Shown: in pieces, positions 3,908-60,885 of the stretch
Layout of the letters: each line of letters starts with the position of its first letter
Numbering within the stretch: position 1 is the stretch's first letter
Source: an uncultured Verrucomicrobiae bacterium
GTDB lineage: Bacteria > Verrucomicrobiota > Verrucomicrobiia > Limisphaerales > UBA11358
Direction: 5' to 3'
Length of the DNA stretch: 64,000 bases
Assembly: GCA_963780535.1 (NCBI GenBank)
Contig: CAWACS010000011.1
Span: forward strand, 6,594-70,593
Position numbers and translations under genes: made by a program
Notes under the pieces: model-generated
Seen by the model: the letters and a program-made list of their open reading frames with translations, nothing else
The model's database searches: none
What the model was told of the DNA's origin: nothing

Positions 3908-4984
3908 ATGCGTGCGCAATCACTGGATTTTCTGCGAACCCTGGTCAACACCCCAAGCCCGACCGGATTCGAAACCCGCGGCCAGCGGGTCTGGCTCGAT
4001 TACGCCAAATCCTTTGCCGACGAGACTTTTTCCGACACCTACGGAAACTGCGTCGCGGTCTTGAACAAGGGCCATTCCCCGCGCTTGATGCTCGCCGCCC
4101 ACGCGGATGAAATCGCCATGACGGTAAATTACATTGACGATGCCGGGTTTGTCTATGTGCGTAGAATGGGCGGTGTGGATGCGGCCATTACCCGGGCGCA
4201 ACGCGTGGTAATCCACTCGCGCCAGGGCGGGGTCAAGGGTGTGGTGGCCAACATTGCGCCCCATTTGACCCGGGAGAATGACAAGGAACCCAAACCGCCG
4301 AAAATTCACGAATTGTTTTTGGACATCGGCGTGGCCAGCCGGAAAGAGGCCGAAAAACTCATCCAGATCGGTGACCCCATCACGCTGGACAGCGACTTCG
4401 CCCTGCTGCGAAATGAACGGGTCGTGGCGCGCGCGCTCGACAATCGCGTGGGCACCTTTGCCGTGGCCGAGGCGTTGCGGTTGCTCAAGGAATCAGGCAA
4501 AAAATTGCACGCGGAAATTTGCGCCGTCTCCAACGTCCAGGAGGAAGTGGGGCTGTTGGGCGTGCGGCAGATCGCCTATGCGCTCAAACCGGAGGTCGCC
4601 CTGATCGTGGATGTGACGCACGCGACCGATTGCCCCACCGTCAGCAAATCACAGCATGGCGATGTGAAAATGGGCCGCGGTCCGGCGATCACCCATGGCG
4701 GTTGCAACCAAGCGGAGGTGGTCGCGCGCATTGAGCGGGTGGCAAAGGCGGGGAAAATTCCATTGCAACATGAGGCGGTCTCGACGTCGAGCGGCACGGA
4801 TGCCAGCGCGGTTTTCTGGACGCGCGGCGGCATTGCCAGCGCGCTGATCGGCCTGCCGTGCCGTTACATGCATTCGCCGGTGGAAATGGTCAGTCTGAAG
4901 GATCTGGAACGCATCCCCGAGCTGCTGGCCGCCTTCGCGCAGTCGTTGAAACCGGGCGAACCATTCAAGGCGAACATTATTTGA
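3908..4984 (+). CDS. M42 family metallopeptidase (glutamyl aminopeptidase / CelM-like)
   Basis: 358 aa. MLAAHADEIAM, ALDNRVG and NVQEEVGLLG are metal-ligand-type motifs typical of M42/FrvX-like peptidases. Confidence 0.8.
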   Translation: MRAQSLDFLRTLVNTPSPTGFETRGQRVWLDYAKSFADETFSDTYGNCVAVLNKGHSPRLMLAAHADEIAMTVNYIDDAGFVYVRRMGGVDAAITRAQRVVIHSRQGGVKGVVANIAPHLTRENDKEPKPPKIHELFLDIGVASRKEAEKLIQIGDPITLDSDFALLRNERVVARALDNRVGTFAVAEALRLLKESGKKLHAEICAVSNVQEEVGLLGVRQIAYALKPEVALIVDVTHATDCPTVSKSQHGDVKMGRGPAITHGGCNQAEVVARIERVAKAGKIPLQHEAVSTSSGTDASAVFWTRGGIASALIGLPCRYMHSPVEMVSLKDLERIPELLAAFAQSLKPGEPFKANII

Positions 4985-5057
4985 CCGGCCCGACGGTCTT
5001 GCGCGAAGAAGGGGTTCAGCCAGGCTTCGCCAAAAGTATCACGCGCAGGAAATTTTC
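4981..5057 (+). pseudogene. Relic of the 3' end of a chitobiase-C-like domain gene, paralogous to 556..632
   Basis: LTGPTVLREEGVQPGFAKSITRRKF here matches LTGPTILRAKAFKPGFTESITTQEIF at 556..632. The first 15 nt are identical and overall identity is roughly 70-75% with one indel. No upstream coding partner exists, and the relic overlaps the M42 stop codon. Confidence 0.4.
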
Positions 5058-5100
5058 CCATCAGTGGACGAATTTCGTTTCGCAAAAACCAAATTTGAAC

Positions 5101-7278: not shown

Positions 7279-7283
7279 AATAT

Positions 7284-8372
7284 TTATTTCGCGTTTGGCA
7301 CGGCGACCACACCCCACGGACTGCCGGGTGATTTGACGCGGGCAATTTCCTTCTCGGTGGCGAGGTCAACCACCGAAACGTCATCGGATGGGCCGTTGGC
7401 GCTAAAAAGATATTTTCCGTCTGGTGAAATGGCGATGCCCCACGGGCGTTTGCCGACCGGGATCGTGTCCAGCACGGCATACGAGTGTGCGTCAATCACG
7501 CACACGGTGCCGGCGCGCCCCGTGCTGGCATAAACCTTCTTTCCGTCCGGCGAGACGACGACGCACTGCGGACGCGAATGCGGTGGCAGCGTGATTACTT
7601 TCAGCAGCGTTTGGCTGGCGGTATCAATCACATTCAATTCGCCCACCGATTCCGACGGGATGAAGGCGCGTGAACCGTCCGGCAGAAACGCCACGCTGCG
7701 CGGACGCGGGTGAACCACGATGTGCCCGACGATTTTGAAGGTTTTTGAGTCAATGGCAAACACGTCACCGGCGGTCTCGCAGGTGATGTAGAAAAATTTG
7801 CCACCGGGACTGACGCCCGCGCCTTCCGGCTCGCGGCTGACGGGAATAAAGGTCACGATTTTTCCCGTCATCGCGTCCAGCACGGTCGCCACGCCAACGT
7901 CTTCATTGGAAATGTAAATGCGCCTGCCATCCGGGCTTAAACAGAACTGTTCCGGATCGGAACCGACGGGAATTTTGCGCAGGAATTTACGTTGCGCGAC
8001 ATCCACGATGCCCAGACCGTCGGCCGTCTTGTCGGCTTTGGCATTGTCGTCATCATCGTCATGACCTTTTTCAAAGATCGGGTTGCCGTTGGCGTCAAGT
8101 TTCGGCGGCGCTTCGACCGGCGTGCCGCTCAGCGCCACATAAAGGGTCCGTCCGTCGAGGCTGGCATGAATGCCGCGCGGCCGCTTCCCCACGGGAATGG
8201 TCGCCGTCACATTGAAATCGGCGCCGTTGATGACAGTCAGATTGCCAGACTTTTCATTGGAAACGAAAATTTGATAATCACCGCCGGGCTGGCCTTGGGC
8301 CGGAACCGCTCCCCATAGAGCCAGGCTGCAACACCACACGGCCAGCCGGGCTGACCGGATATTTGTCTTCAT
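7284..8372 (-). CDS. Secreted YVTN/YncE-like seven-bladed beta-propeller protein
   Basis: Signal peptide MKTNIRSARLAVWCCSLALWGAVPAQG. Blades of ~40 residues recur (SNEKSGNLTVING, GKRPRGIHASLDGRTLYVA, SPDGRRIYISNE, SPDGKKVYAS, SPDGKYLFSANG). An alternative start lies at 8396. Confidence 0.7.
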   Translation of the reverse strand: MKTNIRSARLAVWCCSLALWGAVPAQGQPGGDYQIFVSNEKSGNLTVINGADFNVTATIPVGKRPRGIHASLDGRTLYVALSGTPVEAPPKLDANGNPIFEKGHDDDDDNAKADKTADGLGIVDVAQRKFLRKIPVGSDPEQFCLSPDGRRIYISNEDVGVATVLDAMTGKIVTFIPVSREPEGAGVSPGGKFFYITCETAGDVFAIDSKTFKIVGHIVVHPRPRSVAFLPDGSRAFIPSESVGELNVIDTASQTLLKVITLPPHSRPQCVVVSPDGKKVYASTGRAGTVCVIDAHSYAVLDTIPVGKRPWGIAISPDGKYLFSANGPSDDVSVVDLATEKEIARVKSPGSPWGVVAVPNAK

Positions 8373-8555
8373 ATTTGAATTCACATGGTACCGCATTTTT
8401 TGGCAAACGCCATTTTTTAGGTATTTTAATCGTTTTCCTTTGAATTTCTTCTAAATTTGAAGTTGATTTGGCCGCCAAATTTGGTAGATTAGTCAAACTC
8501 AGCGGACAAGTTCTCGTCCAAATACGGGGAGGGGATTTTAGGTTGGGTTGTTGAT

Positions 8556-18496: not shown

Positions 18497-18556
18497 GCAG
18501 GATATCCACGTTGACCACTTGCCGTTGCATGTGCGCTCAACCTTTCCCAACCCGAT

Positions 18557-18675
18557 TCACTTCATCACCGGCTGGTAACCCTGCCACTGCCATTCCAGGG
18601 CTTCAGCCAACCTTTGGTATTTCACCTGGCCGTCCACATGCCCGGCGTTGCGGGGAAAAATGAATTGGCAATCGT
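18557..18675 (-). pseudogene. 3'-terminal remnant of an esterase gene, paralogous to the end of 20047..21171
   Basis: The minus-strand translation ...CQFIFPRNAGHVDGQVKYQRLAEALEWQWQGYQPVMK* matches ...YQFIFARNAGHVDDRVKQLTLPEALEWLWYDYQPDIK* at the end of the esterase. No N-terminal part is present. Confidence 0.65.
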
Positions 18676-19962: not shown

Positions 19963-20046
19963 AGAATGGATTCCTTTCCTGCGATTAAAGAGGTTGTTAG
20001 CTGATAATGCCGTGATTGGCAATCACTTGATTGTGACAACCTGGTT

Positions 20047-21171
20047 TCACTTTATATCCGGCTGATAATCGTACCACAGCCATTCCAGGGCTTCGGGCAA
20101 CGTCAGTTGTTTCACCCGGTCGTCCACGTGCCCGGCGTTGCGGGCGAAAATAAACTGGTAATGATAACTCTTGGCCGCCAGCACCTTCGCCATGTTTTCA
20201 TTCGCAACGACCCAGTCATGCATGTTGTCGCGCATGACGTTCGGATTGAAGAGGTCACGGTCACCGACTTCCATCCAGATGCGCAGCGGCTTGACCGGGC
20301 TGTTCGGGATGAGGTGTTCATGAAACTCCCAGGCGCCGTGCGGAGTGTCGGCGTTGGGCGGCCATTGCTGGTTCACATAGGTGCCCGAATACGTCAGCAC
20401 GCGGTGGTAAAGCTCCGGATGATACCAGGCCATGATCAAGGCACACGAGCCACCGGAACTGCCGCCCATGGTCGCCCGGCCGTCGGGATTTTTGGTCAAG
20501 ATCACGCGGCATCGTTTTTCCACGAGCGGCAACACTTCCTGCTCGACGAACTCCGCGTACCGGCCGGACAGGGTGTCGTATTCCAGGCCGCGCTCGCTGC
20601 CTTGGGCGTCGCCGCTGCCATTGCCAATGGAGATGGCAATCATCACCGGCACTTTGCGTTCGGCAATCAAATTGTCCAAAGCCGTGAACAACATGCGGTC
20701 GGGTCCGTCCGCGCCCACCATGAATGGCGCGACCGTGCCGGGGATGTATTGTTTGGGGACATAGACCGCCACGTGGCGGGTGTAGGGAGCCGGGTGGCTG
20801 GTGGTCACCACCAGTTTCGCGGGGTCGGTTGGATCCACCGTGCCAAAAGTACCCGGCTCGCGCGCGATGCCGGGATAAATTTTGCTGTCCGCCGAACTCA
20901 TGTTGAAATGATAGACCGTTCCCCGCGGTACATTGGTCTGCACCATCATTTCAGTGGCGCGGGGATGAGTCGGGCCGATGATAAAGTTTCCATCGGCATC
21001 CGCCGGCGGAACGGTGCCGTCGGGCAATTCCTTGGCCGTGACATATCCCGGTGTGTGCGGATCGCGGGTGGAAGGCGTGGAGCGGGTCGGGTGGTTGGTG
21101 GTGGACTGGGCCGGCAAATTCAACGTCGCGCAGAGCAACGCAACACTCCATGTCAATCTGGTAATCTTCAT
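20047..21171 (-). CDS. Secreted esterase of the putative-esterase / enterochelin-esterase-like family
   Basis: Signal peptide MKITRLTWSVALLCATLNLPAQS. The GGSSGGSCALIMAWYHPELYHRV nucleophile-elbow region and HVDD near the C-terminus are present. An alternative start lies at 21201. Confidence 0.72.
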   Translation of the reverse strand: MKITRLTWSVALLCATLNLPAQSTTNHPTRSTPSTRDPHTPGYVTAKELPDGTVPPADADGNFIIGPTHPRATEMMVQTNVPRGTVYHFNMSSADSKIYPGIAREPGTFGTVDPTDPAKLVVTTSHPAPYTRHVAVYVPKQYIPGTVAPFMVGADGPDRMLFTALDNLIAERKVPVMIAISIGNGSGDAQGSERGLEYDTLSGRYAEFVEQEVLPLVEKRCRVILTKNPDGRATMGGSSGGSCALIMAWYHPELYHRVLTYSGTYVNQQWPPNADTPHGAWEFHEHLIPNSPVKPLRIWMEVGDRDLFNPNVMRDNMHDWVVANENMAKVLAAKSYHYQFIFARNAGHVDDRVKQLTLPEALEWLWYDYQPDIK

Positions 21172-21214
21172 TTGTGTGCTTTCCTGAGTTGAGGTGGTCA
21201 ATCTTGCAGCTTTC

Positions 21215-21264
21215 GGTGGGGCGAGCGTCCTCGCGAGCCGGCTCGTCAGTAGCCTCGCCCCACC
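21215..21264. repeat. 50-nt palindromic REP-like element (GGTGGGGCGAG...CTCGCCCCACC)
   Basis: ggtggggcgagcgtcctcgcgagccggctcgtcagtagcctcgccccacc. Its reverse complement is 49/50 identical to 60800..60849. Confidence 0.85.
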
Positions 21265-21270
21265 AATTAT

Positions 21271-23649: not shown

Positions 23650-25653
23650 ATGTTGACTCTTTCCGGCATCAGCAAGGCGTACGGCGGGCGGGTTCTGCTC
23701 ACCGAGGCCACGCTGCAGGTGAATCGTGCGGACCGCATCGGGCTGGTCGGTCCGAATGGCGCGGGGAAGACCACGCTTTTTTCCATCATCCTGGGCACGG
23801 AATCGCCGGATGCAGGCAAGTCGAGCCGTGAACGCGGGGTCACGGTCGGCTATCTGCCACAGGAAACTGCGGTGGCCGGCGACGAAACGGTGATCGAACT
23901 GGCCACATCCGTCACGCCGGATTTCGTGAAGCTGCGCCGCATCATCAAGGCCTGGGAGACGGACCATCCGGTCGCGGCGCTGCATCCGGATGAAATCCAT
24001 GACAACGTGCACGACCGTTTCAACGAACTCGGCGGCTACCAGCTCGAGGCAAAGGCCAAGCAGATTCTCGCCGGCCTGGGCTTCCGCGAGACCGATTTCG
24101 ACCGGGCGGCCCGCGAGATGAGCGGCGGCTGGGTGATGCGTGCGCATCTGGCGCGCCTGCTCGTGCAGGAGCCGGACCTCCTGATGCTCGACGAGCCAAC
24201 GAACCATCTCGACCTCGAGGCGTTGCTCTGGCTCCAGGGGTATCTGCAAAGTTATCCCGGCGCGATCCTGGTCATTTCGCACGACCGCGAATTCCTCAAC
24301 CGGCTCGTCGGCAGCATCGTGGAAATCCGCCAGAGCAAGCTGCTGCGGTATCGCGGCAACTACGACGAATACCTCGATCAGCGCGCCGCGTACGAGGAAC
24401 AGCTCCTCGCCGCCTACAAAAACCAGCAGCGCGAAATCGGACAGCTCATGGAATTCGTAAACCGGTTTCGCGCCAAGGCGTCCAAGGCCACGCAGGCGCA
24501 GAGCAAACTTAAGCAGGTCGAGCGCATGGACAAAATCGCCGCGCCCACGAACGACGAGCGGAAAATTGGTTTCAGTTTTCCGCAGCCGCAGCGCAGCGGG
24601 CAGAAGGTCATCACGCTCGAAAACATCCATCAGGCATACGGCGACAAGACGGTTTATCGCGGCATGGAATTCAAGGCCGAGCGCGGGCAACGCATCGTGC
24701 TGGTCGGGCCGAACGGCGCCGGCAAATCCACGCTGTTGAAAATCCTCGCCGGGGTGGTCGTCCCGCAAAGCGGCGCGCGGACGCTGGGCCATAACGTCAA
24801 GGCCGGTTATTATTCGCAGAACCGCGTCGAGATGCTGAACCCCGGCCACACCGTGCTCGAGGAGGCGCTCAACACGCCGCAACGCGTCACCGAGCAGTTC
24901 ATCCGCACGTTGCTGGGTTGTTTCCTGTTTCAGGGCGACGACGTGTTCAAGCCGGTCAGCGTGTTGAGCGGCGGTGAGAAGAGCCGGCTGGCGCTGGTGA
25001 AACTGCTGCTCGACCCGCCGAACCTGCTGTTGATGGACGAGCCGACCACGCACCTCGACATGGCGAGCATCGATGCCCTGGCCTACGCGCTGGATCAGTT
25101 TCAGGGCACGCTCGTCTTCATCAGCCACGACGTTTATTTCATTCGCGCCCTGGCGAACCACGTTGTGCACGTGAACGCCGGCCAGCTCACCCATTATCCC
25201 GGCGGCTACCAGTATTATCTCGATAAAACCAAGGCTTCGTCCGAACGCGCAGCGTTGACCGCGACTGGCAGGGACGCGCTGTCCACCCTCCGGAGTAATG
25301 CTGCGAAGGACGGGCCGCTCGCCCGTGATTCCGCCGGACGCGAGCAGGCCGCGCCGCCCCCCGGCCCCGCCATTTCACGGAAGGACCAAAAGCGCCTCGA
25401 AGCCGAGCAACGCCAGGCCCGTTCGCGCGGGCGCAAGGCGCAACAGGAGATCGTCAGCCGGCTCGAAGCGGAAATCCTGCAACTCGAAACGCAGCTCGCC
25501 GAACTCACCGCCGAACTGGAGCTGCCTGCGACCTACGAAAAGCCGGGTCGGGCCGCGCAGGTGAACCGCGAGATGGTGCACGCGCAGGAGCGTCTGGCGG
25601 AATTAAACCCCGTCTGGGAAGCCGAGGCCGGCAAATTGTCGGCCATGGCTTGA
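23650..25653 (+). CDS. ABC-F family ATPase (two ABC domains and a C-terminal coiled-coil; translation-factor type)
   Basis: Two Walker A motifs (GPNGAGKTT, GPNGAGKST), two LSGG signatures (MSGGW, LSGGEKSRL) and no transmembrane domain. Confidence 0.9.
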   Translation: MLTLSGISKAYGGRVLLTEATLQVNRADRIGLVGPNGAGKTTLFSIILGTESPDAGKSSRERGVTVGYLPQETAVAGDETVIELATSVTPDFVKLRRIIKAWETDHPVAALHPDEIHDNVHDRFNELGGYQLEAKAKQILAGLGFRETDFDRAAREMSGGWVMRAHLARLLVQEPDLLMLDEPTNHLDLEALLWLQGYLQSYPGAILVISHDREFLNRLVGSIVEIRQSKLLRYRGNYDEYLDQRAAYEEQLLAAYKNQQREIGQLMEFVNRFRAKASKATQAQSKLKQVERMDKIAAPTNDERKIGFSFPQPQRSGQKVITLENIHQAYGDKTVYRGMEFKAERGQRIVLVGPNGAGKSTLLKILAGVVVPQSGARTLGHNVKAGYYSQNRVEMLNPGHTVLEEALNTPQRVTEQFIRTLLGCFLFQGDDVFKPVSVLSGGEKSRLALVKLLLDPPNLLLMDEPTTHLDMASIDALAYALDQFQGTLVFISHDVYFIRALANHVVHVNAGQLTHYPGGYQYYLDKTKASSERAALTATGRDALSTLRSNAAKDGPLARDSAGREQAAPPPGPAISRKDQKRLEAEQRQARSRGRKAQQEIVSRLEAEILQLETQLAELTAELELPATYEKPGRAAQVNREMVHAQERLAELNPVWEAEAGKLSAMA

Positions 25654-33755: not shown

Positions 33756-35294
33756 ATGGACGACACGAATTCATTGATCGAACAACGCAAGGCCAAGCTC
33801 GCCGCGCTGCGCGCCAAGGGCACTGACCCGTTTAAAAACAAATTCACGCCGACCGAATCGTGTGCCGACGCGCGGAAGCATTACACCGAAGGCCGCGAGG
33901 TGGCCGTGGCCGGCCGCATCACCGCGCACCGGGACATGGGCAAATCCATGTTCATCGACGTGCGCGACCAGAGCGGGCGCATCCAGGTCTATGCGCAGAA
34001 AAATATTCTTGGCGACGAACTTTGGGAAATTTTCAAGCATCTTGATTTGGGAGATTTCGTCGGCGTGCGCGGCACGCTGTTCACTACCAAAACCGGTGAG
34101 ATTTCCATTAAATTAGGTGGCCGAGGCGAGCCAACTGTAGGACAGGCGTCGCGCCTGTCTCAAATCGAAAAAGAAAAATCAGAGACAGCCGCGACGGCTG
34201 TCCTACCCCCGTTTGTGATTGTGGCCAAGGCGCTCCGTCCGCCGCCGGAAAAATGGCACGGCCTCGCCGACACCGAAATCCGCTATCGCCAGCGCTATCT
34301 CGACCTGATGGCGAACCCGGAGGTGAAGGACGTTTTTCTCAAGCGCAGCCAGATCATCACCGAGCTCCGTAGTTTCCTGCAGTCGCGCGGCTTTGTCGAG
34401 GTGGAGACGCCGATGATGCAGGCGATTCCCGGCGGCGCGGCGGCGCAACCGTTCAAGACGCATCACAACGCGCTCGGCTGTGATTTTTACCTGCGCATCG
34501 CGCTGGAACTGTACCTCAAACGCCTGCTGGTCGGCGGCGTGGACAAGGTGTTTGAGATCGGCCGCAACTTCCGCAATGAGGGACTCTCGCGCAAACACAA
34601 TCCCGAATTCACCATGCTTGAGGCCTACCAGGCCTTCGGCGATTACGAGAGCATGATGGAACTGGTGCAATCCATGATTTGCCACGTTGCGGAAAAGGTT
34701 CTGGGGACATTGAAAATTGAAACGAAAGATGGCGAAGGCAAAGTTGTAAAGACGATTGACCTCACACCGAACTGGCGTCGGGTCAAATACAAGGACCTCG
34801 TGCGCGAAAAGGCCGGGGCGGATTGGTTCGAGGTTTCTCTGGCTGAGCGCCGCCAACGCGCGCACGATCTCGGCGCGGAAATCACCAAGGACTATCAGGA
34901 TTTTGAGGTCACCGGGGCAGTGTTTGAGAAATTGATCGAGCCGACGTTGATTCAGCCGACGTTCGTCACGCATCTGCCGAAGGAACTCGTGCCGCTGGCC
35001 AAGCTTTCGCCCGACGACCCGACGACCGTCGAAGTCTTTGAATGTTGCATCAATGGCCAGGAGATAGCTCCAGCTTACACTGAGCAGAATGATCCGATTG
35101 AGCAGCGCGAACGGCTGGAGCATCAAGCGGGTGGCGAGCAGCAGAAATTGGACGAGGATTTTCTCATCGCGCTGGAGCACGGCATGCCACCGGCGGGCGG
35201 CATGGGGATGGGCATTGACCGTCTGTGCATGATGCTGCTCGGCCAGGAAAGCATCCGCGACGTGATCCTGTTCCCACAATTAAAGCCGAAATGA
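33756..35294 (+). CDS. lysS: Lysine--tRNA ligase (class II) carrying a ~30-aa in-frame insertion
   Basis: An OB-fold N-terminus (VAVAGRITAHRDMGKSMFIDVRDQSGRIQVY) is followed by KALRPPPEKWHGLADTEIRYRQRYLDLM, then class II motifs up to [29 protein letters not shown]. Confidence 0.95.
   Translation: MDDTNSLIEQRKAKLAALRAKGTDPFKNKFTPTESCADARKHYTEGREVAVAGRITAHRDMGKSMFIDVRDQSGRIQVYAQKNILGDELWEIFKHLDLGDFVGVRGTLFTTKTGEISIKLGGRGEPTVGQASRLSQIEKEKSETAATAVLPPFVIVAKALRPPPEKWHGLADTEIRYRQRYLDLMANPEVKDVFLKRSQIITELRSFLQSRGFVEVETPMMQAIPGGAAAQPFKTHHNALGCDFYLRIALELYLKRLLVGGVDKVFEIGRNFRNEGLSRKHNPEFTMLEAYQAFGDYESMMELVQSMICHVAEKVLGTLKIETKDGEGKVVKTIDLTPNWRRVKYKDLVREKAGADWFEVSLAERRQRAHDLGAEITKDYQDFEVTGAVFEKLIEPTLIQPTFVTHLPKELVPLAKLSPDDPTTVEVFECCINGQEIAPAYTEQNDPIEQRERLEHQAGGEQQKLDEDFLIALEHGMPPAGGMGMGIDRLCMMLLGQESIRDVILFPQLKPK
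34137..34206. repeat. 70-nt inverted-repeat (REP/MITE-like) element embedded in frame in lysS
   Basis: The arms are gtaggacaggcgtcgcgcctgtctc (34137-34161) and gagacagccgcgacggctgtcctac (34182-34206), complementary at 23/25 positions. A 20-nt A-rich spacer separates them. The element is related to the GTAGGG family. Confidence 0.75.
35208..35294 (+). repeat. Direct repeat, left copy: the functional 3' end of lysS
   Basis: 79/87 nt identical to 38744..38830 by hand alignment. Confidence 0.9.
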
Positions 35295-35297
35295 ACT

Positions 35298-36281
35298 ATG
35301 GCGGAACAGACCACCTGCCCGATTTGCGAAGAAAAAGTAACGGTTGATCCTTACGAGGGGGGAAGTTACAAACTCAATTGCGTTCGTTGTGGGCGGTTTT
35401 CAGTTTCCAAACTTGCTCTCAATCCTCTTTCCACGGACGTACATTTCAACCGAGCCAATCTTTCGGGCTGGATTCGGGAAAATCAGGGATACCAAATCAC
35501 CGAAAATAATTTGCATTCACTCCTCCAAATAAAATCGCCAGCAGTTGGCGTAAAAGGTGAAAAGCTTTTACTTTGGTTTGCAAAAACCAATCCTAAAGCT
35601 GGGACTAAAATTCGAATCGTTACCGAATCTTTCACTGGTCCTGTTGGGGTAAGACTATCAGGAATGGACGCATCACGGCTGAAGTATCTCATAAAGCCAG
35701 AATTGCTCGCTTGTAGTTGGGCCCAAGACTTCCAAGAATTTTTTTACATCCTTGAACAATATCTCGAAAACGAAGTTGGCCAGATTGAGTTCCGGGGCAG
35801 CGATTACAGGATCACTCCAAGAGGTTGGGCGCATCTTCAGTCCCTGCAACAAACCAATGCTCAAAGTCAAATTGGTTTCGTTGCAATGTGGTTTGATAAA
35901 TCCGTTGATCCGGCTTGGACAGCTATTGATGCTGGAATCCGAAGTTCTGGTTACGAACCATTGCGAATTGATCGCAAAGAACACAATAACAAGATTGATG
36001 ACGAAATTATTGCAGGTATCCGTCGCAGCAAATTTCTTGTTGCCGATTTCACTGGTCATCGCGGCGGGGTTTATTTTGAAACCGGATTTGCGACCGGACT
36101 TGGGTTGCCAGTAATTTGGCTCTGTCGCCAGGATGAATTGGAGAAGACCCATTTCGATACGCGGCAATACAATTTCATCGTTTGGGAAGCTGATAAGCTG
36201 TCCGAGCTTGAAAAGGTACTGCAAAACCGGATTGAGGCTACCATCGGGCGTGGTCCGTTGACCGCAAACGTCGTGACGTGA
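35298..36281 (+). CDS. Zinc-ribbon / winged-helix-like / C-terminal TIR- or nucleoside-2-deoxyribosyltransferase-like domain protein (candidate effector or sensor)
   Basis: The N-terminus is CPICEEKV...CVRCGRF (CxxC...CxxC). The mid region ends in DYRITPRGWAHLQSL. The C-terminus reads IGFVAMWFDKS...IDDEIIAGIRRSKFLVADFTGHRGGVYFETGFATGLGLPVIWLC. This is the Rossmann-like pattern with a conserved Glu that I associate with the TIR/NDT superfamily. The ATG is 3 nt after the lysS stop. Confidence 0.7.
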   Translation: MAEQTTCPICEEKVTVDPYEGGSYKLNCVRCGRFSVSKLALNPLSTDVHFNRANLSGWIRENQGYQITENNLHSLLQIKSPAVGVKGEKLLLWFAKTNPKAGTKIRIVTESFTGPVGVRLSGMDASRLKYLIKPELLACSWAQDFQEFFYILEQYLENEVGQIEFRGSDYRITPRGWAHLQSLQQTNAQSQIGFVAMWFDKSVDPAWTAIDAGIRSSGYEPLRIDRKEHNNKIDDEIIAGIRRSKFLVADFTGHRGGVYFETGFATGLGLPVIWLCRQDELEKTHFDTRQYNFIVWEADKLSELEKVLQNRIEATIGRGPLTANVVT

Positions 36282-36359
36282 TCCTATTTCCATAGTTGAA
36301 GCGGAAATGGGTGAGACGCATTGCTTGATTCGAGCACGGGCTGATGAAATACTGGGCCA

Positions 36360-37250
36360 GTGAAGCACACGGCCACAACCAAACCAACATCTTTCGCGGA
36401 CTACAAGCCCGATGCGAGGAATTGGATTACGCTCGCAACTGGCGAATATTATCCCGACATCCTCAAGGACGCATGCGAATTATACAAACCGGTTTTGGTT
36501 CTGTTTGGCCAGCTTTTGAAGTCGTCTGAATCTTCCACCCGCTTGTTCATGCAAATTGCCGATCAATCCGACGGTTGGATGCGTGTCCAGCTGGCGCGGG
36601 TCTTTCGGAAATACGTCAGCCCCGAAACGCCGGTGGAAATGTTGAAGCTGAAATCCAAAGCCAAAACAATTTGCGACCAGTTCGGCAAAGGTTTTCGCCC
36701 CATTCAAAAAGTTCAAGCGGCGTTCACCTCGCGACCGTTGCCTGACGAGGCTCTGTGCGCTGTTCTATGGGAATACAAAGACCGGGGCAAGAAAGGTTAC
36801 GACCTCACCGAGAGATTCTTCTCTTTGTTCCGCTCCACGTTCCCCAATTTACACATCAAAGGCCCGGAGCGCGCCGGCAAGGATGTTTTGCTGGGTGAGG
36901 TTTTTGAAAAATATCCGAAACCTGACCGTCCGGTTGATTTTGTAATCTACGACGCCAAAGAGAAAGAAGTGCTGGCAATCGGTTTGGCTCGCTATGATTC
37001 CGATCGGGGTGGCGCTCAGGAAGATGACCGCACTGGAGGCTATCAAAATTGTGCCGATGAGATTCTGAACTACGCGAAGAAACGTCATTTTCGCACAAAA
37101 GTCATCTTCGTTAATGACGGACCGGGACTTTTGCTCGGCTCGATGTGGAATGACTATGCACATTTGGAGCGCAGCCGTCCGGGAAAAATTCTTGTCGCCA
37201 CTTTGCGAATGATCCCGGAGCGAATCACACGCGAGTGGTTGTTTTCCTAA
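36360..37250 (+). CDS. Restriction-endonuclease-like protein (architecture reminiscent of the DpnII/MboI family; catalytic motif unclear)
   Basis: 296 aa with a GTG start. RGKKGYDLTERFF ... RPVDFVIYDAKEKEVLAIGLARYDSDRGGAQED ... KVIFVNDGPGL parallels the RKNRxG...FDFVI...IExN.Y.SGGSKLNE...FVWITDGQGW layout I recall for that family. It ends 8 nt before the methylase gene. Confidence 0.55.
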   Translation: MKHTATTKPTSFADYKPDARNWITLATGEYYPDILKDACELYKPVLVLFGQLLKSSESSTRLFMQIADQSDGWMRVQLARVFRKYVSPETPVEMLKLKSKAKTICDQFGKGFRPIQKVQAAFTSRPLPDEALCAVLWEYKDRGKKGYDLTERFFSLFRSTFPNLHIKGPERAGKDVLLGEVFEKYPKPDRPVDFVIYDAKEKEVLAIGLARYDSDRGGAQEDDRTGGYQNCADEILNYAKKRHFRTKVIFVNDGPGLLLGSMWNDYAHLERSRPGKILVATLRMIPERITREWLFS

Positions 37251-37257
37251 ATCTCTT

Positions 37258-38754
37258 ATGGCGACCGGAATTCCCAGAACCAGATGGCAAAGCGCGCTAC
37301 ATGCAGTTGCAACAAATGGCAACACTGCGGGCAACACCGATGTCCGGCTCGATTACGAAGGGAAAAAAACAGAGCGCGAAATCCTGCTAACACCAATGGT
37401 GAATTGCCATCAACTTTGGCCAGAGGCTCGAAATGGCGATACCAATCGTCTTTACTGCAGTGACAATCTGCCGATTCTAGCCACGCTGGCAAAAGACCCA
37501 TCCATCAGTGGCAAGGTGCGGCTGGTTTACATTGACCCGCCCTATGCTACCAAGAGCGTCTTTCAATCGCGCAATCAAGCCGACGCCTACATGGATTTGT
37601 TGGAAGGTGCACACTATCTAGAGTTTCTCCGAGAGCGGCTGATTCTTTTGCGTGAATTGCTGGCCGATGATGGCTCGATTTATGTCCATCTCGACAACAA
37701 CATGGCTTTTCATGCCAAAGCCATCATGGACGAGGTGTTTGGACGGGCCAATTTTCGGAGTTGGATCACGCGCAAGAAATGCAACCCGAAGAATTACACG
37801 AGGAAAACTTACGGCAATGTGGCCGACTACATTCTTTTTTATACAAAAAGTGAAAACTATGTCTGGCATCGTCCGGTTGATTCGTGGACGGAAGACCGGG
37901 CGAACAAAGAATATCAGTATGTCGAAGCAGACACAGGTCGCCGCTACAAGAAAGTTCCCGTTCATGCGCCGGGGGTTCGCAATGGAGAGACCGGCCTGCC
38001 GTGGCGCGGAATGAAGCCGCCACCCGGCAAGCATTGGCAATATCCGCCGCGTGTCCTTGATGAAATGGACGCGCGTGGCGAAATTTATTGGTCGCCTACG
38101 GGAAATCCGCGCCGGAAAATCTACCTTGATGAAAGCGCTGGCGTGGCCGTGCAAGACATTTGGCTGGATTACCGCGACGCCCACAACCAAAACATCGCAA
38201 TTTCCGGTTATCCGACGGAAAAGAATTCCAGTCTCCTGACCCGAATCATCGAGGCTTCATCCAACAAAGGCGATATTGTATTGGATTGCTTTTCCGGTTC
38301 GGGAACCACGCTGAATGTTGCTTCACATCTTGGCCGGCGTTGGATTGGTGTGGACAACAGCCGTGAGGCCATTGCTGCCACGCTCCGCCGTTTTGGCAAG
38401 GGGCTTGAACTCATGGGCGATTTTGTCAACAAACCTTCCTTCGCAAACGAGGAAGAGGCATCTTCAACCATTCTTCCACTTTTCCAAACGAACAATTTAC
38501 AGAAACCGGTGCCGAAGGTTCGCAATCAACATCAAGTCATCAAAGACTTCACTTTGTTTGTCCAGGAACCTTACCGGGGTGAATTTCACGATTTGCTCGA
38601 GCTGTGGATGAGGTGGACGAGCGAAGCACAAATTCTCCGACTTGCCGAGGCGCCGCCACCTTACGGAAATCGAACAACGAAGAAGCGCGTAATAAAAAAA
38701 AACAAGGGTGGAAAAACCACAAAGTATATTATTCGCCGCCAGCATGGGCATTGA
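37258..38754 (+). CDS. Beta-class (Type III Mod-like) N6-adenine/N4-cytosine DNA methyltransferase
   Basis: RLDYEGKK...[15 protein letters not shown]...[15 protein letters not shown] (motif IV) comes ~250 aa before [17 protein letters not shown] (motif I). The [37 protein letters not shown] block is present. The stop codon lies inside the right lysS repeat. Confidence 0.85.
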
Positions 38755-38830
38755 CCGTTTGTGCATGATGCTGTTCGGCCAGGGAAGCATCCGCGATGTA
38801 ATCCTGTTCCCACAATTAAAGCCCAAGTAA
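38744..38830 (+). repeat. Direct repeat, right copy: a displaced lysS 3' end with an intact 28-codon frame but no gene body
   Basis: It encodes [28 protein letters not shown], versus ...[19 protein letters not shown] at the real lysS end. Confidence 0.9.
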
Positions 38831-38836
38831 AGGTAG

Positions 38837-38857
38837 GGACGCCGTGCCACGGCGTCC
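38837..38857. terminator. GC-rich hairpin of the GTAGGG family between the lysS remnant and lpxD (possible bidirectional terminator)
   Basis: ggacgccg-tgcca-cggcgtcc forms a perfect 8-bp stem and is preceded by aggtagg. There is no U-tract. Confidence 0.35.
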
Positions 38858-38879: not shown

Positions 38880-39911
38880 CTATTTTTTGCCGTGCTTTGA
38901 TTTCGCGGCGACTTTCTTTTCCAGTTTGGTCACGCGTCTGAGCAGTTCGGGGAGATGCTGGTAGGCAATCATCTGGCGCTTGGCCTGTTTGTCCGGCTGG
39001 GCGGGAATGCCCAGCCATTTCTCGCCGTCCGGAATGTCGCGCATTACGCCGGCTTTACCGGTGATGACAACCTGATTGCCGATTTTCAAGTGCCCGGCGA
39101 TGCCGGATTGTCCGGCCAGCACGACATAATTTCCCAGTTTTGAACTGCCGGCAATGCCGGACTGTGCGATCAGCAGGCAGCCTTCGCCGATTTCGACGTT
39201 GTGCGCGATTTGCACGAGGTTGTCAATTTTCGTGCCCTTGCCGATGACCGTCGAGTCGAGCGCGGCGCGGTCAATGGTCACCCCCGCGCCGATTTCCACG
39301 TCGTCGCCAATGACGACCTTGCCAATCTGAGGCACTTTGAGGTGGATACGGCCATCCTGCACGTAACCAAAGCCGTCCGAGCCCACCACGGTGTTGGCGT
39401 GAATGCGGACGCGCCGGCCGATTTCCGTGCGCGGATAAACCGTCACGTTCGGGAACAGATTTACGTCATCGCCCAGTTTGGAATCGTCGCCGATGAAATT
39501 GCCGCCCTGTAAAACGGTTCGGGCGCCGAGATGCACGCGCTCGCCAATCACGCAATACGGACCGATGTGTGCGCTGGGATCAATGGTTACATCGGCGGCG
39601 ATGATGGCGGTGGGATGAATACCGGCGGCGAAGGTTCGTTCCGGAAAAAACAATGCGAGGGCCTTGGCGAAGGCGACACGGGGATTTGACACCCGAATCA
39701 GGATTTTTTTCGTCGAGAAAAAGCGTTTATCCGCGATGATGGCGGTCGCGGCGCTCGTTTCGGCGCGTCTGAAGAAATCCTCGTTTTCAGCAAAAGTGAG
39801 GTCACCCGGCTTGGCGGAGCCGGCTTGGGCAAAACCGTTGAGGGTGGCTGAAGCATCGCCAAGCACTTCACCTTCAATATGTTTCGCTATTTCTGCGGTG
39901 GTAAAGGCCAT
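38880..39911 (-). CDS. lpxD: UDP-3-O-acylglucosamine N-acyltransferase LpxD
   Basis: MAFTTAEIAKHIEGEVLGD N-terminal domain, then long left-handed beta-helix hexapeptide repeats. An alternative start lies at 39938. Confidence 0.9.
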   Translation of the reverse strand: MAFTTAEIAKHIEGEVLGDASATLNGFAQAGSAKPGDLTFAENEDFFRRAETSAATAIIADKRFFSTKKILIRVSNPRVAFAKALALFFPERTFAAGIHPTAIIAADVTIDPSAHIGPYCVIGERVHLGARTVLQGGNFIGDDSKLGDDVNLFPNVTVYPRTEIGRRVRIHANTVVGSDGFGYVQDGRIHLKVPQIGKVVIGDDVEIGAGVTIDRAALDSTVIGKGTKIDNLVQIAHNVEIGEGCLLIAQSGIAGSSKLGNYVVLAGQSGIAGHLKIGNQVVITGKAGVMRDIPDGEKWLGIPAQPDKQAKRQMIAYQHLPELLRRVTKLEKKVAAKSKHGKK

Positions 39912-39975
39912 TTGGTTGACTTGTCTGTCGCGGCTCACTATAAAGACGCGCGTACCCAGTTCAACCCCAACTTTT

Positions 39976-41191: not shown

Positions 41192-41276
41192 GCCCGCGTG
41201 GCGGAATTGGCAGACGCGCTAGATTCAGGTTCTAGTGAGTAACATCGTACAGGTTCAAGTCCTGTCGCGGGCACCA
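41192..41276 (+). tRNA. tRNA-Leu (anticodon CAG), CCA encoded
   Basis: Folded by hand. Acceptor GCCCGCG/CGCGGGC, anticodon stem CTAGA/TCTAG with loop TTCAGGT, a long variable arm, and T-arm ACAGG-TTCAAGT-CCTGT. Confidence 0.93.
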
Positions 41277-41386: not shown

Positions 41387-41833
41387 ATGAAAGTTCTGTT
41401 TCTAAACGGGCCGAATTTGAACTTGCTGGGGCAGCGTGAACCGGACGTGTACGGGCGCGCAACGTTGGCTGATATCGAGGCCAAAGTCCGCAATCAAGCC
41501 GGAAACCTGGGCGTTGAGGTGGACTTCAGGCAGACCAATGTGGAAGGGGAATTGGTGGATTGGATTCAAGAGGCAAAGGGGAAATTCGACGTGATCGTCC
41601 TTAACGCCGCCGCGTACACGCATACGAGCATTGCGCTCAGAGACGCCATTGCTGCAGTGGGGATTCCAACCATAGAAATTCATCTTTCAAACATTCATGC
41701 CCGGGAGGAGTTCAGGCATAAATCACTCATTGCACCAGTTTGTTGGGGGCAAATATCCGGATTTGGCCAAAAATCATATTTGTTGGCATTGGAAGCTTCC
41801 GTTGACGTTAACGAACTAAAAAAACACTTGTAA
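41387..41833 (+). CDS. aroQ: Type II 3-dehydroquinate dehydratase
   Basis: [23 protein letters not shown] and [16 protein letters not shown]. Confidence 0.95.
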
Positions 41834-42015
41834 TAGAGTGTTATTGCGTCCATTTTTGGCTTATTCAATTTGCTTTTTGTTTCTTGACGTTGGTGACATT
41901 CAACTATAATATGTTTCAAATTCGTAACAGATTTAAGCAGAGTCGTAACCCGGCTACTGCTTTTTTGATTATAGCTCAAAATGTGGTTTTGGAAGAACTT
42001 TAACGAAATCGAAAC

Positions 42016-42486
42016 GTGGATCTAAAAGATATTAAGGCCATAATCGACCTGATGAAGAAGAACTCCATTACGGAGTTTGAGTTGGAAAGGCAGGATTCCA
42101 AGATCAGGTTGAAAAGAGGAACCAACGGAACAGTTGCTCCGGCTATTCAGTATGATGATTCAGCATCTCTTACGGCAGGTCAGCCTGCGGTTTCGGCCAC
42201 TCCTGCGGTTCCCGCCGGAGGGAGCCCGGCTCCGGCGGCCACGGGCGAAGTTGAAATCAAATCTCCAATGATTGGGACTTTTTATCGATCACCATCCCCG
42301 GAAGCCCACAGTTACGTCGAGATTGGTACCGAGGTCAACCCGGACAGCGTCGTTTGCATTATTGAGGCAATGAAGGTGATGAACGAAATCAAAGCGGAGG
42401 CCAAAGGTGTTATTACCCAGGTTTTGGTGGAAAATGCCAAACCGGTGGAATTTGGCCAGCCGCTGTTCAAAATCCGTCCGACCTGA
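42016..42486 (+). CDS. accB: Acetyl-CoA carboxylase biotin carboxyl carrier protein
   Basis: GTG start. MDLKDIKAIIDLMKKNSITEFELE, a Pro/Ala linker, and the biotinylation motif EAMKVMNEI. Confidence 0.9.
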   Translation: MDLKDIKAIIDLMKKNSITEFELERQDSKIRLKRGTNGTVAPAIQYDDSASLTAGQPAVSATPAVPAGGSPAPAATGEVEIKSPMIGTFYRSPSPEAHSYVEIGTEVNPDSVVCIIEAMKVMNEIKAEAKGVITQVLVENAKPVEFGQPLFKIRPT

Positions 42487-53567: not shown

Positions 53568-54059
53568 ATGAACCGCTCGCTGGCCATAGTACTGGGTGCG
53601 CTGGCTCTCGGGGCCGCGTTATTCAGCGGCTCCTTTTTGGTGGGCCAGCGCCTGTGCCAGGTTTGCGTGGCGCCGCCCACCGGCAGTCTTGGTTGGTTGC
53701 AGAAGGAATTTCACCTGAACGCCGCCGAGATGGTACGCATCCAGAAACTGCACGCCGATTATTTGTCCCAATGCAATACGATGTGCCGGATGGTCACCGC
53801 AAAAAAAAAGGAGGTGGCGGCGGCCTTGAACAACGCGACCAACGTCGGTCCCGTGGCTGGACAAAAACTGGCTGAACTGGCTGCCTGTCGCATGCAATGC
53901 CAGTCCCGGATGCTCCAGTATTTTGCTGAGGTCAGCCAAATCATGCCGCCAACGGAAGGCCGCCGTTACCTTGCCGAGATGCAAAACGCCGCCCTCGGTT
54001 TTCAGGAAGGAAACGAGCAACCTGTATCGCAATCCGCCGGCCATGAGCAACACCCCTGA
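53568..54059 (+). CDS. Membrane-anchored/periplasmic helical protein, possibly a Spy/CpxP-like stress sensor
   Basis: Signal/anchor MNRSLAIVLGALALGAALFSG. Helical, Cys- and Met-containing repeats are present. The ORF contains an A9 run (53801-53809). Confidence 0.45.
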   Translation: MNRSLAIVLGALALGAALFSGSFLVGQRLCQVCVAPPTGSLGWLQKEFHLNAAEMVRIQKLHADYLSQCNTMCRMVTAKKKEVAAALNNATNVGPVAGQKLAELAACRMQCQSRMLQYFAEVSQIMPPTEGRRYLAEMQNAALGFQEGNEQPVSQSAGHEQHP

Positions 54060-54642
54060 CGCCAGGCCTTCGCCGGAGGCTTGTGACCGGGCCGACATGG
54101 AACGATTGGCCGCCGGCCACGATACGGCGCTCAACGACTTGATGGCACGGCACGCGACGCCGCTGTTTCATTTTCTCTGTCGGATGCTGGGCAATGAAGA
54201 CGATGCCAACGACCTGACGCAGGAAACGTTTGTCCGCGTCTTCCGCGCCTGTGCCGGTTTTCGGACGAATGAAAAATTTTCCACCTGGCTCTACACCATT
54301 GCCGCAAATCTGGCGCGGAACCATTTCCGCTGGCGCTCCCGGCATCCGAACGTTTCGCTCGAGGCCGAAACCGGGGAGTCGGAACAAACCCTCGGCGGTA
54401 GTTTGCCGGCAGACGGTCCGGCGCCCAACGAACAGGCGCAGACCGCCGAACGCGCCGTCGCCGTACGAGTTGCTGTGGGCCGGCTGCCCGAAGAGTTGCG
54501 CGCGGCCATTGTGCTCTGTGAATGGGAGGAACGCAGTGTCGCGGAAGCAGCGGTGATTTTGGAAACTACGCCGAAAGCCGTGGAATCCCGGCTCTACCGC
54601 GCCCGGCAGATCTTGCGCGAACGGTTGAAAAACTGGCTGTGA
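54043..54642 (+). CDS. ECF-type RNA polymerase sigma-70 factor
   Basis: Region 2 is DDANDLTQETFVRVF...FSTWLYTIAANLARNHFR. Region 4 is LPEELRAAIVLCEWEERSVAEAAVILETTPKAVESRLYRAR. The ATG at 54043 overlaps the upstream gene by 17 nt. Confidence 0.85.
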   Translation: MSNTPDARPSPEACDRADMERLAAGHDTALNDLMARHATPLFHFLCRMLGNEDDANDLTQETFVRVFRACAGFRTNEKFSTWLYTIAANLARNHFRWRSRHPNVSLEAETGESEQTLGGSLPADGPAPNEQAQTAERAVAVRVAVGRLPEELRAAIVLCEWEERSVAEAAVILETTPKAVESRLYRARQILRERLKNWL

Positions 54643-60009: not shown

Positions 60010-60885
60010 TTACCGGCTCTTGGTATAGGTGACGAATTCGGCATCCTCGTCGGAGGTCGGCATGTTCAACGTGAACGTCTGGCTTTGGCCCAGAATGACC
60101 GTGATTTCCTTCCGGCTGAAATTCTCCAGGTAATAATCCATGACGTAGCTGCCCGGTTGGATCCCGCGTTGGATGTCAATTTTCTTGTAGCCTTCGCGCC
60201 ACGTGGGATCGGCGGTGTCGAGCATGAACCCGACAAAATCCCGGCCCGGTCGGGAATGATCCCGCACGATGCCGATGCGATGCGGAACCGTTCCGGACCC
60301 ATCCCAGATGCCTTCTATCGGGTCGAGGGTTTGCCGGTGCGTGTCGAGATAATGGGCGAACCCTGACTCCGAAACGGCAAAGGTTTCCCAGGCATCCGTG
60401 TAGCGCAGCAGGTCGGCCACCATGCGATAACTGGCACTTGAATAACCCGGATCTTCGACCGATCTCACCTGCACGGCGTCCGCGCCTTTTTCCCAGGCAG
60501 TTTTAATTATTTTTGCCGTTTCCTCCTCGGCCGACCCGCCGCGCATCGTGAGATGGCCCCCGCCGATGAAGACGGTTCCAATCACGGCGCAGGACCGGGG
60601 AACGGTCATGTTTTCGGTATAAACGGGGATGGGATAACCCGCCGGCCTGGCCGGTCCGGCCGGCAGACGGGGTTGATAGGTCAACACGGTCGAACAACCC
60701 GTTAACAGCAGCGCCAAGCAAAAAATCCACGCGATGCTGATGGGAAGAGCCGGGCCGATGCAAAATTTTGTGTCATGGGATGAGGTACTGGCACATTTTG
60801 GTGGGGCGAGGCTCCTGACGAGCCGGCTCGCGAGGACGCTCGCCCCACCAAAAACTGCAAAAGGTACCACTACCTGGGATGACAT
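60010..60885 (-). CDS. Hypothetical lipoprotein; the N-terminal coding region runs through a REP element
   Basis: A lipobox-like LLLTGCST is preceded by GGASVLASRLVRSLAPP, which is the translation of the repeat at 60800-60849. The start is uncertain (60885, 60927, 60933 or 61002). Confidence 0.5.
   Translation of the reverse strand: MSSQVVVPFAVFGGASVLASRLVRSLAPPKCASTSSHDTKFCIGPALPISIAWIFCLALLLTGCSTVLTYQPRLPAGPARPAGYPIPVYTENMTVPRSCAVIGTVFIGGGHLTMRGGSAEEETAKIIKTAWEKGADAVQVRSVEDPGYSSASYRMVADLLRYTDAWETFAVSESGFAHYLDTHRQTLDPIEGIWDGSGTVPHRIGIVRDHSRPGRDFVGFMLDTADPTWREGYKKIDIQRGIQPGSYVMDYYLENFSRKEITVILGQSQTFTLNMPTSDEDAEFVTYTKSR
60800..60849. repeat. 50-nt palindromic REP-like element, an inverted copy of 21215..21264
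   Basis: ggtggggcgaggctcctgacgagccggctcgcgaggacgctcgccccacc. Confidence 0.85.

Follow-up and report, generated by a model that had tools for sequence, protein, structure and literature searches.

A stack of two cassettes behind lysS in an uncultured Verrucomicrobiae bacterium and its probable origin by serial displacement of the gene's 3′ end

Insertion with long target duplication is on record for restriction-modification (R-M) systems of all types, with repeats of 46–423 bp and no known mechanism (PMC2853133). The phenomenon was described by Nobusato in 2000, as cited in Furuta, Abe & Kobayashi 2010, and the criteria of the latter study were an insert that holds both R and M genes and measures less than 20 kb, a repeat longer than 30 bp and no mobility genes (PMC2853133). 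The repeats are single-copy where the insert is lacking, some overlap the 3′ end of a gene, the last inserted gene can become fused into the repeat, and the cases came mostly from naturally competent species (PMC2853133). Sequential displacement has been described for the effector-immunity modules of type VI secretion systems (T6SS), for which homology-facilitated illegitimate recombination (HFIR) was proposed, followed by homologous recombination that spreads the arrays (Kirchberger 2017, PMC5361080); the same paper cites C-terminal displacement arrays of the Rhs/CdiA toxins (Jackson 2009). Many defense islands and hotspots lie between core genes without an integrase or transposase, which raises the question of how they are filled. 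Here, we analyzed a 64-kb stretch of an uncultured Verrucomicrobiae bacterium (contig CAWACS010000011.1 of assembly GCA_963780535.1; "the window" below always means this whole stretch), in which three genes, g1, g2 and g3, stand between lysS, the lysyl-tRNA synthetase gene, and lpxD. An earlier note, made from the sequence alone, had described the three as one cassette of low GC content, inserted in the 3′ end of lysS between 87-bp direct repeats. We found two cassettes, and we consider it rather likely that this two-layer stack was built by lysS-anchored homologous and illegitimate recombination, which displaced the 3′ end of lysS one time after another.

The features of the locus are listed in Table 1, where T1 is the resident tail of lysS and T2 and T3 are displaced tails. 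T1 and T3 form the most significant repeat of the window (self-blast E 2e-28), and a 24-nt core of this repeat had no match in 100 shuffles. The recurrence of the last 87 nt of lysS, with the number of mismatches counted in the earlier note, was thus reproduced, as was the open frame of T3, which runs through 28 residues without interruption. The eight differences between T1 and T3 consist of five synonymous changes, two amino-acid changes (L->F and E->G) and a change of stop codon from TGA to TAA. T2 is placed right between g1 and g2; with the reading RDVILFP*LKRK, it continues to a stop at 36312–36314; its 38-nt alignment with T1 covers 36272–36309 of the whole element, and its region folds no better than shuffled sequence (z -1.3). 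Since T2 stands between g1 and g2, the insert is made up of two parts, cassette A (g1) and cassette B (g2 and g3), and the single three-gene cassette has to be given up for two acquisitions, which T2 and the R-M leader keep apart. The GC content differs between the parts as well, with 43–47% in g1, 49–55% in the R-M part and 55–61% in lysS, so that the low GC values first given for the whole insert apply to g1 and not to the R-M genes. The start of g1 lies 3 nt past the lysS stop, and the stop codon of g3 (38752–38754) lies inside T3, which supplies the last codons and the stop of g3; both had been noted before.

Table 1. Coordinates of lysS, the two cassettes, the tail copies and the bounding features in the window
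Feature	Position	Strand	Description
lysS	33756–35294	+	Anchor gene, class II lysyl-tRNA synthetase, 512 aa; Pfam tRNA-synt_2 E 2e-88 and tRNA_anti-codon (OB anticodon domain)
T1	35208–35294	+	Functional lysS tail, 87 nt, reference copy of the repeat; fits the 28-residue family consensus
g1	35298–36281	+	N-terminal zinc ribbon, hypervariable middle, C-terminal DNPH1/NDT/TIR-like domain
T2	36270–36314	+	Decayed displaced tail, ~38 nt plus stop, 4-nt insertion; 31/38 identical to T1
R-M leader	36315–36359	+	Promoter-like boxes TTGATT-N17-(TGA)AATACT, kept in six genomes
g2	36360–37250	+	BstEII-family Type II restriction endonuclease; PDB 9ibq_A 'BstEII' E 6e-86
g3	37258–38754	+	N6/N4 DNA methyltransferase (Type II); Pfam N6_N4_Mtase E 5e-49
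T3	38744–38830	+	Displaced lysS tail; 79/87 identical to T1, 8 mismatches
Hairpin	38833–38857	.	GC-rich, GTAGGGAC, 9-bp stem; -22.9 kcal/mol, z -2.9 on +
lpxD	38880–39938	-	Convergent core gene bounding the array; Pfam LpxD and Hexapep

The order of arrival could be read from related loci (L numbers), all of them metagenome assemblies or contigs of metagenome-assembled genomes (MAGs); those with R-M genes were found via contigs encoding close homologues of g2. The same R-M cassette with the same junctions was present at no fewer than five independent loci, and the R-M pair stands directly behind lysS, without g1, in L161, L162, L163/L164 and L166/L167. In L161, L162, L163 and L166 the left junction runs from the lysS stop into GACGCATTGCTTGATTC...TGAAATACT...CCAGTGAAG, with the stop joined to GACGCATTGC. 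In the window, the leader GACGCATTGCTTGATTC comes right after T2 and not after the live lysS stop. Because the leader follows T2 here and the live stop elsewhere, T2 was the live end at the time at which the R-M pair stood first behind lysS, and g1 therefore arrived later than the R-M pair. An intact version of T2 is present in L165, L168 and L169, and the order g1-T2-R-M recurs in L165 and in L168–L171. At the right junction, the end of g3 is joined to lysS residue ~385, and the tail found there measures 380 nt in L161, 348 nt in L163, ~135 nt in L166, 87 nt in the window and 38 plus 26 nt in L162. As the tails at this junction elsewhere reach ~380 nt or are other deletion derivatives, T3 appears as a deletion remnant; most simply, its 87 nt would be what is left of an ancestral displaced tail of ~380 nt and not an att site, contrary to the first reading of the 87-bp repeat as an attachment footprint.

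Other loci carry other cargo in the same position. L083 has a DUF433/DUF5615 toxin-antitoxin pair behind lysS, followed by a tail of 32–36 nt, and L003 an AhpC/TSA-type redoxin followed by a tail of 89 nt. Stacks were found in L163 (R-M pair, tail, DUF433/DUF5615 pair, 34-nt tail), in L161 (R-M pair, 380-nt tail, ParE-type toxin-antitoxin pair, 85-nt tail), in L168 (two open reading frames of no known identity, X1X2, then a 343-nt tail, g1, T2 and the R-M pair) and in L169–L171 (a different open reading frame, X', then a 270–307-nt tail, g1, T2 and the R-M pair). In L165, lysS is followed by g1-T2-R-M as in the window, and g1 also stands directly behind lysS in L082, L106 and L174–L177. The newest cassette adjoins lysS in every array. 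Over all arrays, the displaced tails range from 26 to 380 nt with lengths specific to the type of cargo, and cassettes can be as small as 0.6 kb. The DUF433/DUF5615 cassette has identical junctions in L083 and L163 despite its different position in the two arrays. The same R-M pair also occurs at three loci away from lysS, where it has no flanking repeats; the repeats therefore belong to the site and not to the R-M unit. Neither in nor beside the approximately ten arrays inspected was an integrase or transposase found, and the cargo types have no common sequence right after the lysS stop, no common core and no inverted repeats.

Relatives free of cassettes (L084, L086 and L122) show only one lysS tail, then a hairpin and native neighbors. 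L086 has a homologous GGTAGGGAC hairpin past its lysS stop, and T3 together with the downstream GGTAGGGAC hairpin aligns with this native lysS end; the hairpin at 38833–38857 is native sequence just past the ancestral lysS stop. It is possibly a bidirectional terminator that serves lpxD as well. The empty site that the earlier note had envisaged, with lysS, hairpin and lpxD in direct succession, was thus found in part: single-tail, cassette-free loci exist (L084, L086), but past lysS the genes do not keep their order. An ABC-F gene is the native downstream neighbor of lysS in L086 and L122. The GTDB representatives show no conserved lysS-lpxD synteny; only L084 keeps msrB-lysS...lpxD, with lpxD 7.9 kb from lysS and other genes between, and a search for the empty site by lysS-lpxD synteny was accordingly set aside. 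In relatives, genes for an ECF sigma factor and an ABC-F protein lie just downstream of lysS. The sigma gene of the window (54043–54639), 82% identical to the gene in L174, lies ~15 kb further on, and the sole ABC-F homologue of the window (23650–25620), with 57% identity, is found 10 kb upstream; the neighborhood has been rearranged. At the protein level, LysS of the window is 72–77% identical to that of Verrucomicrobiota genome representatives and up to 90% identical to that of metagenome contigs, and this protein assigns the window to the Verrucomicrobiota, close to Limisphaerales and subdivision 3.

The origin of the tails was addressed by sorting the differences between resident and displaced tails by codon position. 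At positions 1/2/3, these numbered 5/2/36 in L161, 13/5/35 in L163 and 12/2/59 in L168, and the displaced tails of L161 and L163 differ from one another by 8/4/42. The excess at third positions was significant for L161, L163, L168 and the tail-to-tail comparison (chi-square p < 1e-5). Live lysS orthologues gave a similar distribution, 9/1/41. Tail copies within a locus are 79–93% identical, and the displaced tails are no nearer to their own lysS than to a foreign one. Since the third-position differences resemble those of live orthologues, the two copies are best described as alleles that diverged while functional in different lineages, and one of them therefore arrived from outside. For these relatives, the comparisons of sequence argue for alleles from different lineages and against duplication in place.

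Two further comparisons bear on the way in which the junctions were formed. A 3.85-kb block (tail-g1-T2-R-M; 4693–8539 in both L168 and L169) is 99.8% identical between these two loci, and their lysS genes are 87% identical in the 5′ part and 72% in the 3′ part; they also differ in the newest cassette and in the genes upstream. A new tail thus goes with a new cargo. The shared block may reflect a recent move or chimeric assemblies. In L165, L168 and L169, a fragment of ~91 nt from the start of an ABC-F gene meets lysS at position -38, with CGCG as the microhomology, and the junction between X' and the tail in L169 also has the ABC-F start; the ABC-F/lysS joint is the one clear case of a microhomology junction. 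Replacement of the recipient's anchor end by donor sequence, as expected of a one-sided anchor, was seen in the tails of L161, L163 and L168 and in the comparison of L168 with L169.

In the mechanism that we favor, incoming DNA of another lineage would bear a 3′ portion of lysS and then the cargo. On the left, the conserved and essential lysS would anchor it by homology, and the right end would be joined illegitimately, at a microhomology, inside the recipient's lysS end, with the old tail surviving as a pseudo-tail; this mode of joining resembles HFIR. In the window, the BstEII-type R-M pair with its leader would first have come to sit directly after the lysS stop, pushing the prior lysS end downstream (~380 nt then, the 87-nt T3 now). 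Next, g1 would have come in at this very site, displacing the tail that was live at that time, now the decayed T2. Once flanked by lysS on both sides, a cassette could be moved by plain homologous recombination into related genomes with any downstream context, and spread of this kind would therefore produce identical junctions in different downstream contexts.

Several points weigh against this account. The recombination pathway is read from fossils in the sequence. The model needs each cargo to have stood once directly behind lysS in some donor, a step for which it does not account, and the regularity with which cargo starts at the lysS stop codon could point to a site-specific enzyme. The third-position bias could also have come from duplication in place and later allelic replacement of the live end. 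Within the window, T1 and T3 have lineage-specific bases in common (CCACAATTAAAGCC), and their eight differences are too few for a codon-position bias; the foreign origin of a tail is therefore supported in the relatives and not in the window itself. The mosaic signal of the window's lysS against its relatives, a switch of nearest neighbor in a sliding window, is weak. Finally, the lysS end contains stretches of more than 40 nt that are identical across species and could give rise to chimeric joins, and the comparison of L168 with L169 calls for caution, since metagenome assemblies could be chimeric.

As a tentative extension, which we hold with somewhat less than even confidence, the lysS 3′ end may be an integrase-free gene-capture platform in an entire clade within the Verrucomicrobiota, where every lysS end that comes in would bring cargo and shift the old end downstream, with flanking lysS sequence making the cassettes portable through plain homologous recombination. 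If true, this would be a general route to defense islands without mobility genes, and the displaced tails would be a dated fossil record.

The first rival explanation invokes a tyrosine or serine recombinase that acts in trans, with the lysS 3′ end as attB and the cassettes as mobilisable elements lacking an integrase, either CIME-like or integron-like (the lysS tail then playing attC/attI), that accrete in tandem. Direct repeats of a gene's 3′ end around lower-GC foreign DNA are its textbook footprint, which the earlier note had seen here; moreover, five or more types of cargo start at the lysS stop, and the arrays grow at the end next to lysS, as integrons do at attI. A recombinase gene elsewhere in the genome could supply the enzyme, although at the arrays themselves neither of the marks of an integrase island, an integrase or a fixed att core, was found. 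The repeat lengths are a difficulty for this explanation, as they vary with the cargo type over the whole range given above, and so are the lack of a common core, inverted repeats or post-stop sequence and the joining of an ABC-F fragment to lysS at a microhomology. In addition, the copies differ over their whole length and not on one side of a crossover, and no recombinase gene was seen in or beside the arrays inspected. Of the first interpretation, insertion behind an intact lysS with displacement of its tail is retained, and classical integration at a specific site is a poor fit; we regard a recombinase in trans as unlikely. Two other readings were also considered. A diversity-generating retroelement, which a repeat at the 3′ end of a gene had brought to mind, was rejected, as adenine specificity is not seen in the mismatches and a reverse transcriptase is lacking. 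A tRNA or other RNA target was likewise rejected, with no tRNA near the site and the tRNA-Leu at 41192 as the only Rfam match in 33–42 kb.

The second rival is insertion in place with long target duplication by a selfish module, for example through restriction breaks and staggered repair of the kind proposed by Kobayashi. The R-M cassette does show what Furuta et al listed, with both genes in an insert of ~2.4 kb (g2 and g3), a repeat of 87 nt in the window and ~380 nt in L161, where the published repeats have 46–423 bp, no mobility genes and a repeat that is single-copy in uninserted genomes; the end of g3 is fused into the tail as in the reported case of gene fusion (PMC2853133). However, cargo other than R-M (g1, toxin-antitoxin pairs, the redoxin and others) has the same structure, the same R-M pair lies without flanking repeats at the three other loci, and the tails differ from the resident copy like live orthologues and not like a copy after neutral decay. 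Duplication in place is hence also an improbable explanation, and displacement by an incoming lysS end remains our preferred one.

The identity of the cassette B genes was established by homology. Residues 11–294 of g2 align end to end with residues 4–285 of the 9ibq_A chain, homologues with 85–91% identity carry the NCBI name 'bstEII', and g2 is 50% identical to a plasmid gene of Geobacillus stearothermophilus ATCC 12980 that lies beside a methyltransferase. The earlier note had called g3 Type III-Mod-like, but the PADLOC model MTase_II (PDLC03354) matched it with E 5e-135, compared with 3e-47 for the best Type III model. No Res-type helicase was found among the open reading frames of the insert, where a Type III system would have both Mod and Res, and none of g1, g2 and g3 is an integrase or transposase; on these absences the earlier note was right. 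At every related locus examined, g3 was paired with g2. By these matches, g2 and g3 are an ordinary and complete BstEII-family Type II R-M system. The earlier note had been able to match the three genes to no named system and had counted a match to a well-described R-M subtype against its finding; such a match was found for two of the three genes.

Upstream of g2, the leader boxes TTGATT and TGAAATACT are conserved in the window, L161, L162, L163, L165 and L166, and the 17-nt spacer between them is variable. Conserved boxes around a variable spacer suggest that the R-M cassette carries its own promoter; a consensus promoter scan does not call the leader (8/12 matches). Avoidance of the BstEII recognition sequence GGTNACC was considered as a sign of R-M activity and discarded, with 20 sites observed in the window and ~19–23 expected. 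Over the whole window, GGGNCCC was absent (0 observed, ~10 expected) and CCCNGGG occurred 4 times (~15 expected), a pattern that may come from pressure by a further restriction system in the host. As carrier of the cassette, a phage or plasmid with a lysS fragment was also rejected: two viral contigs have R-M pairs with 63–65% identity and no lysS fragment, and the plasmid matches are four in number and distant.

The known effectors of phage defense include NDT-like and TIR-like ones, and g1 resembles these to a degree. Its match to Pfam Nuc_deoxyrib_tr (PF05014) reached 24.4 bits, below the cut-off of 28.8, so that the threshold of the curated family was not passed, and its sole PADLOC match was a TIR effector model (E 6e-12). 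NCBIfam has no family for g1 or g2. The AF2 model of g1 has a pLDDT of 83.7, and its best Foldseek matches were DNPH1/Rcl (target TM 0.67–0.72, E 1e-4), with weaker matches to TIR domains. Across 26 homologues of g1, the invariant residues were C7/C10/C28/C31 of the zinc ribbon and E261, a Glu within GGVYFE in the highly conserved C-terminal domain; in the predicted structure, this corresponds to a Rossmann-like fold with a Glu after the third strand. As a lead only, g1 is a candidate stand-alone defense effector of N-glycosidase type, and we infer a role in which the variable N-terminal part would sense a trigger and cleavage of a nucleotide or of NAD would fall to the N-glycosidase-type domain. 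Probably g1 is co-transcribed with lysS, as first proposed, as the gap between the two contains no promoter-like or terminator-like site.

The homologues of g1 showed some further peculiarities. Compared with the L168 block, the 5′ two-thirds of g1 (35330–35817) are only 48–59% identical, whereas the flanking lysS tail, the 3′ third of g1 and the R-M genes are 80–97% identical; this segment has the look of a sensor part, hypervariable or swapped, amid conserved flanks. L172 encodes a homologue away from lysS (5001–6179, 392 aa, 52% identical), the neighbors of which are DDE, rve and ISL3 transposases and the HicB and MazEF toxin-antitoxin genes.

That g1, g2 and g3 form one new defense system, in which g1 would work jointly with the nuclease and the methylase, is very unlikely. 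The genes are co-oriented and tightly packed, and the order g1-T2-g2-g3 recurs in L165 and L168–L171. Against this, the R-M pair occurs without g1 in L161–L163, L166 and L180–L185, g1 occurs without the R-M pair in L082, L106, L172 and L174–L177, the units are set apart by T2, an old tail of lysS, and by a promoter-like leader that is separate, and g2 and g3 are complete as a BstEII-type system alone. An assembly artefact, in which metagenome contigs were mis-joined at the conserved lysS end, is least probable of all, to the point that we give it hardly any weight: the stretches of over 40 nt shared across species and the use of MAGs and metagenome contigs throughout would allow it, but the copies within a locus are not identical (79–93%), the arrangement of the window is repeated in independent assemblies of other samples (L165, L168–L171) and junctions are common to different studies.

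Some observations concern lysS and the window beyond the array. Within lysS, an in-frame palindrome of 70 nt (34137–34206), perfect-looking, with 25-nt arms that are 92% complementary and each begin with GTAGGAC, folds at -45.3 kcal/mol (z -8.1) and has one copy in the window. It lengthens the protein by ~30 residues, placed between the anticodon-binding domain and the catalytic one (512 aa, compared with 482 aa in L083 and L084), and resembles REP-/RPE-like selfish palindromes within coding sequence. The lysS genes of L114, L122, L128, L162, L163, L168 and L169 have an in-frame insertion of 370–460 nt at residue ~322–332, giving proteins of 598–648 aa; in L114, two LysS alignments overlap at residues 332–382, which hints at a partial internal duplication. 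Elsewhere in the window, a self-complementary element of 63 nt occurs twice (21203–21266 and 60796–60860, 95% identical) and is MITE- or REP-like, and a direct repeat of 117 nt (18556–18672 and 20046–20162, 80% identical) has its copies 1.5 kb apart. A low-GC patch (39–41%) at 41600–42200 lies just after aroQ (41387–41833), near the tRNA-Leu gene (41192–41276).

The locus and its relatives preserve the junctions of successive acquisitions, and the displaced ends give the order of events. A foreign lysS end appears to have arrived with each new cassette, with one or more joints at a microhomology. This makes a mechanism testable, namely anchoring by homology in an essential gene with an illegitimate joint, then homologous spread, and it offers an explanation for the long target duplication seen at R-M systems. 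For annotation, it corrects an over-reading that lies close at hand: in place of a new three-gene system there is a standard R-M pair of BstEII type and, independent of it, a candidate effector. In a limited literature search, nothing relevant was found on a lysS hotspot or on displaced ends of essential genes.

Compared with known proteins, g2 is like BstEII (PDB 9ibq) in aligning end to end and in having an adjoining N6/N4 methyltransferase, as on the Geobacillus plasmid; it differs in being ~50% identical to the Geobacillus gene, and recognition of GGTNACC is only expected by homology. Like DNPH1/Rcl and the NDT/TIR effectors, of which the NDT-like one of retron Ec86 is an example, g1 has in its C-terminal domain a predicted DNPH1/NDT fold with an invariant Glu, related to the TIR NADases. 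It differs in its make-up, one gene that combines a zinc ribbon with a hypervariable middle, and no partner of the retron, Thoeris or CBASS kind lies nearby.

Compared with known arrays, the locus is like an integron in the one-way stacking of small co-oriented cassettes at a fixed entry, with a repeat after each and probable expression of the first cassette from an upstream promoter. It is unlike an integron in that IntI and attC hairpins were not found, the repeats are pieces of the anchor gene with variable length, and the R-M pair apparently has its own promoter. With the islands and CIMEs at the 3′ ends of tRNA and protein genes it shares lower-GC foreign DNA behind an intact gene, the old end as a direct repeat and tandem accretion; unlike them, no lysS array has an integrase or a fixed-length identity block or core. 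The Rhs and T6SS arrays are similar in their conserved upstream anchor, in the new module next to the anchor and in the older 3′ ends and modules pushed downstream. There, it is the variable tips of toxins that are displaced, and immunity genes are stored in the arrays, whereas the pieces displaced at lysS are the conserved end of a housekeeping synthetase, with cargo of several kinds that is unrelated to the anchor. Compared with long target duplication, one essential gene is used repeatedly, in stacks and for cargo beyond R-M, and the repeats, by the comparisons in relatives, look like alleles of different lineages and not like copies of the recipient's target. Allelic repeats of this kind indicate a mechanism that the earlier work left open (PMC2853133). 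The gene content is thus ordinary, and the interest of the locus lies in its architecture, a variant of the known phenomena of displacement and long duplication.

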